From NCBI RefSeq assembly GCF_000027125.1, contig NC_017626.1: a stretch of 64,000 nt of DNA; one strand, written 5' to 3'. Position numbers and translations under genes: made by a program. The stretch's first letter is position 1, and every line of letters begins with the position of its first letter. Shown here piece after piece: positions 55,836-64,000 of this stretch. Source of the DNA: Escherichia coli 042. GTDB lineage: Bacteria; Pseudomonadota; Gammaproteobacteria; Enterobacterales; Enterobacteriaceae. The notes beneath the pieces were generated by a model that saw nothing but the letters and a program-made list of their open reading frames with translations, made no database searches and was not told where the DNA came from.

Positions 55836-55912
55836 TCGGCACGTAGCGCAGCCTGGTAGCGCACCGTCATGGGGTGTCGGGGGTCGGAGGTTCAAATCCT
55901 CTCGTGCCGACC
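55836..55912 (+). tRNA. proL: tRNA-Pro (anticodon GGG)
   Basis: CGGCACGTAGCGCAGCCTGGTAGCGCACCGTCATGGGGTGTCGGGGGTCGGAGGTTCAAATCCTCTCGTGCCGACCA: 7-bp acceptor stem CGGCACG/CGTGCCG, D-arm, GGG anticodon, T-arm GGTTCAAATCC, encoded CCA. Confidence 0.9.
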
Positions 55913-55942
55913 AAATCGACCATAGTTAATCATCGTTTTTAT

Positions 55943-55980
55943 GAAAAAAGCCCGCTAATTCATTGAATAGCGGGCTTTTT
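55943..55980. terminator. bidirectional-looking intrinsic terminator after tRNA-Pro
   Basis: AAAAAAGCCCGCTAattcattgaaTAGCGGGCTTTTTT. Confidence 0.7.
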
Positions 55981-56048
55981 TATTGCTTTTAGTCATCGTT
56001 ATTCCACGGTAACAGTGGTTTTCAGCCGTTTTTTTTAGTTATATGTTT

Positions 56049-56086
56049 AGTTATACGGTCTGGCGGGTAGCTAAACCCGTATAACT
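56049..56086. promoter_or_regulatory. 10-bp perfect inverted repeat upstream of the integrase gene
   Basis: AGTTATACGG-N18-CCGTATAACT, plus direct repeat TAGTTATA at 56036 and 56048; 34-84 bp upstream of int ATG. Confidence 0.4.
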
Positions 56087-56119
56087 AAAACCTGTTTTTT
56101 CCCGTGGATTCAAAAACGT

Positions 56120-57364
56120 ATGGCAAGAAAGGCGACCCCACTCACCACCACACAGATCAAAGCAGCTAAACCAGCGGAAAAAGAATACACCTTACAGGAT
56201 GGCGGCGGGCTTTTTCTCGTCATTAAGCCATCTGGTTCGAAACTATGGCGATTCAACTACTATCGACCATCGAACAAAAAACGAACAATCATTAGTTTGG
56301 GATCGCTCGATGAAGTCTCCCTGGCTGATGCCAGAAAACGCCGTAGCGAGTACAGGACGTTAATTGCGTCAGGGATTGACCCACAGCATCACGAGCGGCA
56401 AAAACGCGAAGCAGAGGCCAGAAGACAGGGCAACACGTTCGAAAATGTGGCCGCATCGTGGTACGAAATGAAAAAAAACCAGAATCTCGCCCACAATACG
56501 ATCAAGGACATCTGGCGCTCGCTAGAGAAATATGTATTCCCGTATATCGGAAACACACCGATAGATACTCTCACCGCTCGCCGCTTTGTTGAGATACTCA
56601 CGCCCATCAAGACACGTGGCAACCTGGAAACACTGAAACGCGTTTTACAGCGCATCAATGAAGTGATGGATTTTGCTGCCAACAGTGGACTGATTGACAT
56701 CAACACCGCTGCGAACGTCCGCAAGGCATTCCCTTCCCCCACCAAAAAACACATGCCAACCATCCGACCAGAACAACTACCGCAGCTAATGCACGATTTA
56801 TCGATCGCCAGCATAGAACGGCAAACCAGATTGCTGATTGAGTGGCAGTTGTTAACCGCAACCCGTCCAGCCGAAGCCTCCGCCGCACGGTGGGAAGAAA
56901 TCAACCTTGATGCGGCAACATGGACGATACCAGCCGGACGCATGAAGATGCGCCGTGATCATGTGATCCCTCTTTGCGCTCAGGCGATGGCAGTGCTTGA
57001 AGCCATGAAGCCGATTAGCGCACGAAGGGAGCATGTTTTCCCAAGTCTTAAAAATCCAGTGCAACCAATGAGCAGCCAGACAGCAAACGCAGCATTACGG
57101 CGAATGGGTTACACTGGTGTACTGGTATCTCACGGGCTACGCGCCATATTCAGCACAGCGGCGAACGAAGAAGGATTTGAGCCGGACGTAATCGAGGCCG
57201 CACTCGCACACGTGGACACGAACGAAGTTAGACGGGCATACAACCGAAGCAACTACCTGGAAAAACGTAAAGTGTTAATGTGCTGGTGGGGTGATTTTGT
57301 GGAAGCAGCCTCAACCGGAACAACCATCGCCAGCGGGCACAGGGGATTACGCGGAATAAAATAA
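56120..57364 (+). CDS. P4-type tyrosine site-specific integrase
   Basis: 414-aa ORF; N-terminal arm-binding-like region (LFLVIKPSGSKLWRFNYY), catalytic-domain motifs TATRPAE, HGLRAIFST and the C-terminal Tyr region RRAYNRSNY; located next to a tRNA. Confidence 0.85.
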   Translation: MARKATPLTTTQIKAAKPAEKEYTLQDGGGLFLVIKPSGSKLWRFNYYRPSNKKRTIISLGSLDEVSLADARKRRSEYRTLIASGIDPQHHERQKREAEARRQGNTFENVAASWYEMKKNQNLAHNTIKDIWRSLEKYVFPYIGNTPIDTLTARRFVEILTPIKTRGNLETLKRVLQRINEVMDFAANSGLIDINTAANVRKAFPSPTKKHMPTIRPEQLPQLMHDLSIASIERQTRLLIEWQLLTATRPAEASAARWEEINLDAATWTIPAGRMKMRRDHVIPLCAQAMAVLEAMKPISARREHVFPSLKNPVQPMSSQTANAALRRMGYTGVLVSHGLRAIFSTAANEEGFEPDVIEAALAHVDTNEVRRAYNRSNYLEKRKVLMCWWGDFVEAASTGTTIASGHRGLRGIK

Positions 57365-57379
57365 AATATTTAAAAAATT

Positions 57380-57413
57380 ATTGGTTCCTAATTGGTACCA
57401 ATTTGGAGCCAAT
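57380..57413. promoter_or_regulatory. 34-bp near-palindrome between int and alpA
   Basis: ATTGGTTCCTAATTGGTACCAATTTGGAGCCAAT; central 14-bp perfect palindrome AATTGGTACCAATT. Confidence 0.4.
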
Positions 57414-57616
57414 TTGTGTCTCTTTACTGTCTCATTTTGAGAAATATTTAAAATTCTTTTTATGTTAGAAAATTAAAAAATAACCAATCACATAACTCTT
57501 ATTAAATAATTCTTGACTTGCTTTTTTATAGATTTGTATTCTTTTTATATGTTTTTACATGTTTACCGTCATTTTCATTCAAAAAGCGGTATTTTACTGT
57601 CTATAGGAGAAATAAG

Positions 57617-61945: not shown

Positions 61946-61980
61946 CTGCCAGTGGATTCACTAACAGAGGTTAACAAATA

Positions 61981-62517
61981 ATGACTACACTGACTATTAG
62001 CAGAAAACCGAAAGGCATTTACGGCATACCACAGAAAAAGACACAGACGACACAGCAGCAGGATAAAACCACATCAGCGCATAAAGTGATACCCGGCAAT
62101 CAGAACGCACAGCAGAGCCGCAAACAGAAGCCCACAGGGGCGACACCGTGGCGGCATATGACCAAACGCCAGGGCAAAAACCGCAGGCGCGTTAACCGTC
62201 TTATTGAACTATGGCCTGAATTATTCAGCCTGGAATCACCGAAGCCGCTTAAGGTAGGAATATTTGAAGACCTGATACAGGATATTGCCGTCAGGGCGCT
62301 GGCTTTTGGGTCAGGGGCATTACGTGCGGCGCTAGCATCTTATGCTCATTCTCCGCGTTATTACCGTGCCTTAATGGCTGGTGGCGTGCGTTACGATCTG
62401 AATAGCCAGCCATGCGGCGAGGTGACACAACAGGAACAGCAGGACGCGGAAGCACGACTGATGGCACTGAAAGAGAAGCGCAAACGTAAGTCGAACAAGG
62501 AGCAAGCTGGCGTATGA
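61981..62517 (+). CDS. ProQ/FinO-domain RNA-binding protein
   Basis: 178-aa ORF; KPLKVGIFEDL ... LRAALASYAHSPRYYRAL ... RYDLNSQPCGEV parallels the E. coli ProQ N-terminal domain. Confidence 0.75.
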   Translation: MTTLTISRKPKGIYGIPQKKTQTTQQQDKTTSAHKVIPGNQNAQQSRKQKPTGATPWRHMTKRQGKNRRRVNRLIELWPELFSLESPKPLKVGIFEDLIQDIAVRALAFGSGALRAALASYAHSPRYYRALMAGGVRYDLNSQPCGEVTQQEQQDAEARLMALKEKRKRKSNKEQAGV

Positions 62518-62798
62518 GTATGATTCACGACAGCAAAGCGGAAGATCTGGAGGCTAAAGGCCTGTACCGGAGAGCGGCAGCCCGATGGGCTGAGGTCATG
62601 CAACAGGTGAACACCGATAAGGAGCGCGAACAGGCAGTAAAGCGTCGCGCGAAATGTATCCACAAGGCAGCACGTTCGCCCGTCATGCTGGATAATTTCG
62701 GGGGCTTGAGAGAGGCAGCAAACCGCACACAGGCGGATATGGGGATAGAAATCGCAAAATCTGTCTGGCGGAACTACCAGACAGACAAGGTTTTATAG
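62514..62798 (+). CDS. PerC-family transcriptional regulator-like protein
   Basis: 94-aa ORF; AEDLEAKGLYRRAAARWAEVM resembles the PerC family signature; start overlaps preceding stop. Confidence 0.5.
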   Translation: MSMIHDSKAEDLEAKGLYRRAAARWAEVMQQVNTDKEREQAVKRRAKCIHKAARSPVMLDNFGGLREAANRTQADMGIEIAKSVWRNYQTDKVL

Positions 62799-62863
62799 TG
62801 GCAGTTCTGCATTATTTTTTGTGTTATTGAGTTGTAGAGCGTTTCAGGAGTTTTTTGAATCAC

Positions 62864-63064
62864 ATGAACGTTTCGCTGGTGGATATTCTTGACAAGTTGC
62901 AGCCAGGCCGACGCGTGCCAGCTCGCCGCAGTGCCTGGCATCTTCCGTACATCGTCTTTCTCGAACGGCGCGGAAACGATTTGATTGCGTTGAATCCCGT
63001 CACAAAGGATAGCGTTACGCTATCTCCTGAGAGTCTACTAGCCACAGACTGGGAGTACTGCTAA
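62864..63064 (+). CDS. hypothetical small protein
   Basis: 66-aa ORF from ATG 62864 (ORF track begins at TTG 62855); AGGAG upstream. Confidence 0.4.
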   Translation: MNVSLVDILDKLQPGRRVPARRSAWHLPYIVFLERRGNDLIALNPVTKDSVTLSPESLLATDWEYC

Positions 63065-63131
63065 ACACAAACGCATCGAGGGTGCTGGCGTGTTGCCAGC
63101 CCCACCCCCTCCGAAATGATCCCCCAAAAAG

Positions 63132-63349
63132 TGCAAAATGATCCCCCATTAACGAACAGAAAACAAACAAAGAGCAACAAATAATCATTATTTACAATTC
63201 TTGACAAAAACACCCCCTATTTATAACCCTACCAAATTTAAAATTACATCTACAAAACAATAAGTTACAAAATCAGCAACGGATCATTTCGGAAAAAACG
63301 GTTAGTCCCTTTTTCGAAAAGGGATCATTTTGTTGCTTAAACTCATATG
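63132..63349. promoter_or_regulatory. four GATC-containing 9-bp repeats (AAATGATCC) bracketing a promoter-like element
   Basis: Direct copies at 63132 and 63154 (22-bp spacing); inverted copies GGATCATTT at 63300 and 63341; second inverted copy abuts palindrome CCCTTTTtcgAAAAGGG. Confidence 0.5.
63220..63246 (+). promoter_or_regulatory. putative sigma70 promoter
   Basis: TTGACA (63220..63225), 15-bp spacer, TATAAC (63241..63246); no ORF downstream. Confidence 0.35.
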
Positions 63350-63597
63350 CGGATTACATATCAATACGCTAGTGATAGCCGTTCTGGAATGCCACAGAAA
63401 CGCGCTGTAATCGATTCTGGCGCAATTAGCTGTGCTAGGTAATGATTTACCTATCTGGGGATGTTGCGCACGTCTGGATTGCGTTACCACCGAAGATTGT
63501 GCGCATATGGTGGCTGTTACGGTGGCCTCCCGACAACGCAAAATTGCGGCGGCACAGTCGGTTTACCGCGCTAACACGGCTTGATTCACTCGCTCGA

Positions 63598-63742
63598 CTT
63601 GTCCCACCTCCCCCCCCAACTTGTCCCAAAACAGCCTAGACTTGTCCCACCTTACCTAATTTATTTCTAACAAAATCAATTTGTTAGGTGCTGGTGGGAC
63701 AGGTGGGACGGGTGGGACGGGTGGTTTTGTATATATATATAC
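63598..63742. repeat. second iteron cluster with the same core as the primase-proximal ori, plus a (TA)6 tract
   Basis: CTTGTCCCA x3 at 63598, 63620, 63641 (21-22-bp spacing); AT-rich spacer; tandem GGTGGGAC x3 at 63693, 63702, 63711 (9-bp period); GTATATATATATAC at 63729. Confidence 0.55.
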
Positions 63743-64000
63743 GAAAAATTGCATTCAGGAGGGGGGCGAAATTCCTGCAATCCATTACTTATGGAACTGT
63801 CCGCCCCGTCAAATTTTTACGCCCGCGCAATTAAAAAAATGCGTCACGCAGGTGGGCATGATGCCGATATGCTTGTCGGGTTCAGCTTTTTAAGGCGGCT
63901 GTAGATGTCAGGTTATCCGTGCTCATCCACCAGCCAGCTTCATAGCGGATAGCCGGAAAATGGTAACGGTTAAAGCTGTACATTTTTGCAGCAAATCATT

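Follow-up and report, generated by a model that had tools for sequence, protein, structure and literature searches.

An 8.2-kb island between proL and yejO

The window analysed here, 64,000 nucleotides of the Escherichia coli 042 chromosome (2,496,001-2,560,000 of contig NC_017626.1), closes on an integrated element that starts at the 3' end of the tRNA-Pro(GGG) gene proL (55837..55913, + strand; ARAGORN, Rfam). Table 2 of the 2010 genome paper of this strain enters a prophage element, ROD34, at 2551911..2560079, 8,169 bp long and inserted at tRNA-Pro, with proQ-like and PerC-like genes named as its cargo at 2557981..2558798 (PMC2808357). These cargo coordinates coincide with 61981..62798 of the window, and ROD34 is therefore window 55911-64079, of which 79 bp lie past the window edge. 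The integrase and the DUF927 replication protein are identical to strain 042 CBG35255.1 and CBG35260.1. A block of about 8.2 kb likewise runs from proL to yejO in four relatives (L001, L005, L006 and L007; 94-99.7% identical), and in K-12 proL is followed directly by yejO and narP, an empty site without the island. The initial annotation, made from the window alone, had taken the segment for accessory DNA at proL, as the K-12 comparison bears out, and the order it gave, core genes and then tRNA-Pro, a P4-type integrase, AlpA, iterons, a single-stranded DNA-binding protein (SSB), a ProQ/FinO protein and PerC, is confirmed item by item. It had also supposed that only the left half was in view and that cargo or packaging genes lay beyond 64000; neither holds, just 79 bp being missing and yejO being the next gene in the source genome and in the four relatives.

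The attL core lies within the last 15 nt of proL (55899-55913, CTCTCGTGCCGACCA). attR had been expected beyond 64000 and is indeed there, about 80 bp past the edge, with no large remainder before it: L001, L005 and L006 repeat the tRNA 3' end imperfectly, as CTCTCGTG(CC), 8.16 kb further downstream, and immediately past this copy their sequence returns to the K-12 flank. An attR within a plausible island length, the lack of which the initial annotation would have taken as a refutation, is thus present in these relatives. Arm-type repeats, TAGTTATAYGTTTAGWTATACG, occur inside both island ends. On the left (56036..56087; motif search of the window and L001) the form TAGTTATA(Y)G is present in two direct copies (56036, 56048) and one inverted copy (56080), and a matching pair, TAGTTATACGTTTAGATATACG, sits at the right end just past the window. 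The start of the right arm, placed from the L001, L005 and L006 sequences and the ROD34 coordinates, occupies 63976..64000, and the remaining 79 bp hold arm repeats and the attR core. These repeats would be bound by the integrase. Directly after the tRNA the island brings its own hairpin with T-runs (55944..55981, a perfect 14-nt inverted repeat), likely a replacement terminator for proL; K-12 has a different hairpin at this position.

All eleven open reading frames (ORFs) of the island are on the + strand, downstream of the tRNA. The first encodes a P4-type tyrosine integrase of 414 amino acids (aa) (56120..57364; Pfam Arm-DNA-bind_3, Phage_int_M and Phage_integrase), which scores 556 bits against NF007246 (cut-off 434), and the second an AlpA-family regulator of 63 aa (57617..57808; PF05930, 6.6e-6; phrog_66). 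The AT-rich region between them, upstream of alpA (57365..57616, + strand), contains a palindrome at 57380-57413 and is hypervariable between islands that otherwise share 94-100% identity, with 26-53 variable columns per 100 bp against 0-13 in the flanking genes. Variation across the island peaks here (57300-57600) and once more where the replicase N-terminal domain is encoded (59200-59600), and both patches look like swapped alleles. In a relative at tRNA-Gly (L004) the Rfam int-alpA RNA (RF02996) lies between int and alpA, at 6016-6083; in the int-alpA spacer of the window it was not detected, even at E <= 1.

Taken as a whole, the locus has an integrase at one end with an att site, alpA downstream of int, rightward genes, an initiator and, after it, an origin in which two iteron sets enclose an AT-rich region, and no phage structural or lysis genes among the island proteins by PHROGs and NCBIfam. 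The initial annotation had already likened the int-alpA-replicase-ori layout to that of Gram-negative phage-inducible chromosomal islands (PICIs), and the gene order agrees. We consider it probable that the island is a complete, minimal cos-type Gram-negative PICI, that is, an 8.17-kb integrative and self-replicating element which would be packaged by outside machinery. Three modules that were absent from the initial annotation enter into this reading and are its most telling parts: the C4/isrK RNAs, a second iteron cluster and a cos-like block.

Leader RNAs and a replicon with paired iteron clusters

The replication operon is preceded by two RNA elements. An isrK-like leader RNA with a terminator hairpin (58213..58289, + strand; Rfam RF01394, 52.9 bits, gathering 50; terminator scan) contains the sequence GTTAACGG (58254-58261), identified by a complementarity check as the upstream C4 target site. 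It is followed by a C4-type antisense RNA (58314..58401, + strand; Rfam RF01695, 77.7 bits, gathering 45, E 2e-14), the second hairpin of which exposes the loop TTCCGTTAAC (58356-58365), complementary both to GTTAACGG and to GTTAACGGAG. The latter target, GTTAACGGAG(G) at 58437..58447 (+ strand), overlaps the Shine-Dalgarno sequence of an icd-like ORF, the first gene of the replication operon (58455..58694, + strand; NF033153, 61.9 bits, cut-off 25). The RNA thus combines a score above gathering with a loop complementary to the ribosome-binding site (RBS) of the icd-like ORF. Loop and target also change jointly across three elements, namely the island, the Shiga toxin (Stx) phage PA2 and the PICI EcCIMP1: in PA2 and EcCIMP1 they differ from those of the island yet stay complementary, and cognate pairings reach 8-12 nt (10-12 nt in the island) versus 4-8 nt for non-cognate ones. 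Such a pattern suggests that the C4 RNA represses the icd-DUF927 operon. The C4/icd module has 84% DNA identity to Stx2a phages over 259 nt; despite this, cross-immunity with Stx phages is not expected because the C4 loop differs.

Control by a C4 loop and its target is the logic of the immI region of phage P1, and here it would govern a replication operon. Both P1 immI (c4-icd-ant) and the Stx-phage module resemble the island in having a C4 RNA, an Icd-like ORF and targets upstream and at the RBS. What differs in P1 is that an antirepressor lies downstream, whereas in the island it is the replication operon, and the Stx phages depart from the island in C4 loop specificity. A literature search on C4 RNA in satellites yielded nothing specific. 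RefSeq annotations of relatives place an incomplete 'ash family' or hypothetical pseudogene over window 58036-58416 (equivalent to L001 22217-22597); overlapping the isrK-like and C4 RNA genes as it does, this is probably an annotation artefact over the RNA leader.

Within the operon the icd-like ORF reads CAA at 58641-58643 where L001 has a TAA stop, giving 79 aa versus the 62 aa annotated in relatives, and in its extended form crosses the start of the next ORF, a small frame of 61 aa that overlaps the end of icd (58636..58821, + strand; phrog_3672, 3e-14; annotated in relatives). Translational coupling is plausible, as the ORFs of the operon overlap. Next comes a DUF4222 protein (58861..59148, + strand; phrog_285; RefSeq names), the gene for which lies, in relatives, always immediately 5' of the replicase gene, whatever the type of replicase. 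The replication initiator/helicase itself is a protein of 712 aa (59145..61283, + strand; Pfam DUF927, PF06048, 1.7e-46; phrog_1139) related to a protein of Staphylococcus aureus pathogenicity islands (SaPIs; 8tch) and to the SCCmec Cch helicase (5dgk). Its N-terminal alpha/beta domain (aa ~15-145) is variable and is followed by the DUF927 helicase core and a C-terminal stretch of ~110 aa. The Toprim primase domain ascribed to it in the initial annotation, a fold marked by a conserved Glu and a DxD motif, could not be confirmed.

The origin follows the replicase gene. Repeat and motif searches place iteron cluster A at 61309..61445, where GTCCCAC/GTCCCA copies 9 bp apart are followed by an AT-rich spacer and by four GGGACAAG, the last three of them 21 bp apart. 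Two iteron sets flanking an AT-rich spacer are also what has been described for Gram-negative PICI origins (Fillol-Salom, PMC6092414; PMC6739421). The same searches revealed a second cluster, B, at 63597..63724, which mirrors the origin: ACTTGTCCC comes three times at intervals of 21-22 bp, and after an AT-rich spacer GTGGGAC also comes three times, at intervals of 9 bp. The island has three copies each of the 9-mers GGGACAAGT and ACTTGTCCC, and the remaining 55.8 kb of the window has none. Relatives show how these sites vary with the replicase. The L004 replicase is at least 97% identical to that of the window over the first ~560 aa and 16-47% identical over the last ~110 aa, and its iterons are GCGGGTTA at both the origin and the right-end cluster. 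In L003 and L006 the N-terminal domains diverge, with the C-terminus and the iterons as in the window, and the capsid-forming PICI (cfPICI) L011 has the same two-cluster layout with GCGGGTTA, fitting its own origin. Since the replicase C-terminus and both iteron clusters switch together, iteron reading most likely falls to the C-terminal ~110 aa, and the replicase most likely binds at cluster B. In one classical PICI, L010, the right-end iterons are GCGGGTTA, unlike those of its own origin (GGTAGACA).

The two-cluster layout recalls P4 ori/crr, which is an analogy only. Together with the antisense-RNA control, reminiscent of the P4 CI RNA, it is nevertheless a point for taking the island as a user of P2-like helpers, either a P4-like satellite or a cryptic prophage of the P4 type, and the P4-type integrase and the AlpA/Vis-like regulator point the same way. 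We regard this as the least probable of the explanations considered. The replicase belongs to the DUF927 type (SaPI Rep/Cch) and not to the P4 alpha type; profile searches returned no homologue of psu, delta, sid or epsilon, none of which was searched by name; and no P2/P4 cos was found at up to 4 mismatches outside the DUF927 coding region, the one 4-mismatch match lying inside the gene, in relative L001. None of the psu-delta-sid operon, epsilon, alpha primase and P2-type cos of P4-like satellites was thus recovered by these searches, and the P4-like option entertained in the initial annotation falls away.

The right-end cos-like block and the case for packaging

Directly 3' of iteron cluster B lies a block of ~150 bp (63730..63871, + strand) with the core TGTCCGCCCC (63798-63807) followed by GTCAAATTTTTACGCCCGCGCAATTAAAAA. 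In a sensitive BLAST search against 50,697 phage records its sole relevant match was the annotated cos-site of the Stx2e phage phiP27 (79.5% over 80 nt, E 4e-8), where the corresponding sequence is CGCCCGCCCC GTCAAATTTTTACACCCGCGAAATTAAAAA. The phiP27 cos is located between genes for HNH (phrog_144) and TerS (phrog_83)/TerL (phrog_9), and the same three families are present in cfPICI L011. A second conserved sub-block follows at 63911..63975 (alignment with L010 and L011); it is common to PICIs and cfPICIs and contains a DnaA-box-like TTATCCGTG and, at a spacing of 21 bp, two repeats of the ATA(A/G)CGG-like kind. Indels in the right-end block indicate that it is not coding, and RNA folding of both strands gave no structure signal (z about -0.4). 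Profile searches of the island ORFs, with PHROGs among others, detected no capsid, terminase (terS, terL) or Rpp gene, and searches of the island for lambda cosN and P2/P4 cos gave nothing above chance. As packaging determinant the island thus offers no terS, rpp or lambda cosN and one candidate, the block homologous to the phiP27 cos.

Both right-end blocks recur in a classical PICI at clpS (L010, L018), in cfPICIs at thiM (L011, L017) and in L004. Identity of the cos block to that of the window is 93% over 135 nt in L010, 88% over 150 nt in L004 and, by BLAST, 77% over the full 250 nt in L011, although the middle of the L011 block looks almost the same as in the window when the two are aligned. 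In each case, element-specific arm repeats adjoin the block. Overall, the cos-like block was found in 507 of 5426 E. coli genomes. An exact-word scan of IMG/VR with an island iteron 30-mer had no matches; with a cos-block 21-mer it gave two contigs, whose ORF sizes are like those of a cfPICI and a classical PICI, and these are therefore not virion evidence for the island. We also noted that L010, which adjoins clpS, has a lambda-like cosN, GGGCGGCGACAG, after its capsid-protease gene as well as the phiP27-type block at its right end (L010 positions 7294 for cosN and 9001-9133 for the cos block; L013 5177), two cos types in one element.

Several points weigh against a complete, packageable PICI. 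The cos assignment depends on a single annotated phage site, to which homology extends over 80 nt, and two of the ten positions of the cos core differ between the island and phiP27. The replicase has no recognised primase domain, so that priming would need a host enzyme. Taking the 60 best cos-block matches, which at 98.7% identity or more to the block of the window were taken as carriers of the island family, the block is single-copy in 48 of these genomes; most carriers would therefore have no resident PICI or cfPICI of the same site, phiP27-like prophages lying outside this survey. SatelliteFinder requires at least four of five components (int, alpA, pri-rep, terS, capsid) for a PICI and sets 'Type C' elements with three aside as uncertain (de Sousa 2023); judged by gene content, the island has three of the five core components of that model (int, alpA and replicase). 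Finally, the 2010 authors found 042p8, which we infer from the row order of their Table 2 to be ROD34, without similarity to known phages and considered the non-lambdoid regions probable non-functional remnants (PMC2808357).

That judgement leads to the explanation we take most seriously after the complete PICI, although we think it rather unlikely, namely that a larger PICI or cfPICI lost its capsid-terminase module and decayed to this remnant, which perhaps still excises, with no spread by transduction. The missing capsid, terS, rpp and terL genes fit it, as do relatives in which the right end is shared and these kinds of genes are present, and the single block copy of most carriers fits it too. 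Conservation speaks the other way. The same 8.2-kb structure is present in full in 52 of 5426 complete E. coli genomes, with every ORF intact. Ratios of pN/pS (0.11-0.13 for int, 0-0.03 for alpA and 0.18-0.20 for DUF927) indicate that integrase, AlpA and replicase genes are under purifying selection, and the non-coding sequence of the right end is nearly invariant among islands. In addition, L001 and L005 have islands that are 99.99% identical in flanks of 98.3% identity, and L005 and L006 have islands of 94.9% identity in flanks that are 100% identical; this disagreement between island and flank points to recent horizontal movement.

The distribution of the cos block bears on a further possibility. 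A satellite of a satellite, with a cfPICI-type cos, would use the terminase and small capsids of cfPICIs, which themselves need phage tails. cfPICIs encode the HNH, TerS (P27 family) and TerL set, their packaging is described as separate from and mutually exclusive with phage packaging (bioRxiv 10.1101/2022.09.08.507074), and the conserved core of the block looks closer in alignment to L011 than to phiP27 (BLAST 77% over 250 nt versus 79.5% over 80 nt). Two island copies make 16.3 kb, near the usual cfPICI size (median int to last core gene 14 kb), just as five make 40.8 kb, 96% of the phiP27 genome, and neither figure counts as evidence. Against it, the 48 of 60 carriers with no second block have no cfPICI of that site in residence, and the block also occurs in classical PICIs that have a lambda-type cos of their own, and is thus not cfPICI-specific. 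On balance we find the idea improbable. If true, it would add a third tier of parasitism in E. coli, in which every hijacking gene has been shed, and the shared right-end module of second iterons and cos would let PICIs, cfPICIs and minimal islands use each other's machinery.

The genes between origin and right end remain to be placed. The SSB (61520..61945, + strand; TIGR00621, 61.5 bits, cut-off 53.95; phrog_44) is followed by a ProQ/FinO-domain protein of 178 aa (61981..62517, + strand; PDB 5nb9 ProQ, 1e-13; 1dvo FinO, 1e-10), for which the NCBIfam FinO and ProQ matches are both under the curated cut-offs, and by a PerC-family regulator (62514..62798, + strand; phrog_994, 2.6e-36); the PerC and ProQ/FinO proteins are accessory regulators. 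Conjugative plasmids typically encode an SSB and a FinO-like protein, and one could picture an integrative mobilisable element that moves by conjugation via an oriT mimic. This is highly improbable, given that the island has no relaxase, coupling protein or recognisable oriT, that the PICI backbone normally includes SSB and PerC, that a phage-type cos-like block is present and that the plasmid collection holds short island fragments only.

In relatives, cargo occupies the slot between PerC and iteron cluster B; in the window this slot contains just small ORFs and AAATGATCC repeats. The first ORF, of 69 aa (62855..63064, + strand; phrog_7206, 1.3e-6), is conserved in L003, beyond the cargo of that element; a Tad2/DUF2829-like assignment was rejected, as a Pfam search had no match even at E 10. 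At 63116..63335, by sequence reading and a terminator scan, four AAATGATCC copies, two direct 21 bp apart and two inverted, surround a TTGACA box and are accompanied by a T-run hairpin (63305-63335). This repeat set was seen solely in this island family and may represent a small transcript or a set of operators. A 50-aa ORF at 63432..63584 (+ strand), hypothetical in RefSeq relatives, is doubtful as a gene. As the initial annotation had noted, no defence domain is visible, and PADLOC returned zero matches for ten island proteins. Relatives are better stocked. L003 (strain MRE162, same proL integrase) has at 14596-23137 a GIY-YIG nuclease, a DEAD/DEAH helicase, a DNA methyltransferase and IS3 elements, a defence-like cargo and an insert flanked by a truncated ssb and the 69-aa ORF, and L004 has at 14649-22310, from PerC to the right-end iterons and cos, three large unannotated ORFs of 843, 686 and 918 aa and one of 104 aa, together a candidate cargo system. 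With a nuclease-helicase-methylase set in the PerC-to-iteron slot of relatives, the family is a plausible vehicle for defence genes, of which the window copy is empty.

A proposed cycle and comparison with known satellites

From these parts a cycle can be proposed. The P4-type integrase would hold the island in the proL 3' end, recombining at the att core and arm repeats observed there. At rest, C4 RNA from the operon leader would pair with the icd-like RBS and keep the operon of icd, the small hypothetical ORF, DUF4222 and DUF927 off, as in P1 immI; the pairing and its co-variation are seen directly, and repression would be their consequence. A helper would then switch on alpA, and AlpA would bring about excision and operon expression, by analogy with EcCICFT073 and EcCIMP1. 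The DUF927 initiator/helicase, aided by the island SSB, would bind the GGGAC iterons at the origin and at the mirror cluster, in line with the co-variation of its C-terminus with both. Concatemers would finally be cut and packaged at the phiP27-type cos by the HNH, TerS (P27 family) and TerL of a helper phage or cfPICI, a step suggested by the homology of the site.

If this is correct, the prophage element ROD34 of strain 042, a reference enteroaggregative E. coli, can now be placed in a PICI lineage, and the island shows to what size such elements can shrink in E. coli, with just an integration module, an AlpA switch, a replicon under an antisense-RNA lock, and a cos site. It could serve as a compact model or chassis for studies of satellite induction and packaging. 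Tools that require capsid or terminase markers set 'Type C' elements of this sort aside; ~1% of complete E. coli genomes have the island and ~9% the cos-like block. A literature search on the proL island turned up nothing specific, and the supplements of the Fillol-Salom 2018 PICI catalogue do not list the proL locus, their EcCI042 being ROD27 at tqsA.

The gene order of the island is that of the left two-thirds of the prototype PICI EcCICFT073 (PMC6092414; PMC6739421), with int, alpA, icd-like gene, small ORFs, DUF4222, replicase, iteron origin, SSB and PerC in the same order and direction. Identities are 67% for DUF4222, 66% for SSB, 56% for PerC, 55% for Icd and 42% for the replicase N-terminal domain. 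The helicase core, however, is of the 'DNA primase family' in EcCICFT073 and DUF927 in the island, the integrases are 25% identical and the att sites differ. Past PerC, EcCICFT073 goes on to genes for major capsid, decoration and Rpp proteins, and its cosN sites are lambda-like, whereas the order of the island ends after PerC and a phiP27-type cos-like block takes the place of lambda cosN. EcCIMP1, a PICI for which excision and transduction with phage Kapi1 have been shown (Pick et al. 2025, PMC11773190), has a DUF927 replicase 62.5% identical to that of the island (aa 147-701) and a PerC of 52% identity, and shares the isrK/C4-icd module and an AlpA downstream of int. Unlike the island, it spans 20 kb at tRNA-Thr, and its replicase contains Toprim; it also has a second alpA, an antirepressor and ejection proteins like those of P22, and it is without the phiP27-type cos block.

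The cfPICIs L011 and L017 (bioRxiv 10.1101/2022.09.08.507074) resemble the island in DUF927 replicase, SSB and PerC, and share with it the two mirror-image iteron clusters and a closely similar right-end cos-like block. They encode capsid, protease, portal, connectors, HNH, TerS and TerL, none of which is encoded in the island. Cos-type SaPIs such as SaPIbov5 carry the cos of their helper in place of a terminase small subunit, and their helpers use HNH-dependent cos packaging. SaPIbov5 is otherwise unlike the island, being Gram-positive, under Stl repressor control and equipped with capsid-size genes, and only the Rep helicase family is related. [quoted passage not shown] The likeness carries no sequence homology: PICMIs lie next to fis, have DUF3987/DUF5906 primases, are confined to Vibrionaceae and use virulent helpers, whereas the island lies at tRNA-Pro, has a DUF927 replicase and belongs to E. 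coli. By the defining features of cfPICIs and PICMIs, then, it falls into neither group. Set beside all of these systems, the island is a stripped-down variant of a known PICI family in the well-studied strain 042, to which the present comparison would add a C4 RNA lock on the replication operon, a second iteron cluster and a conserved cos-like block at the right end.

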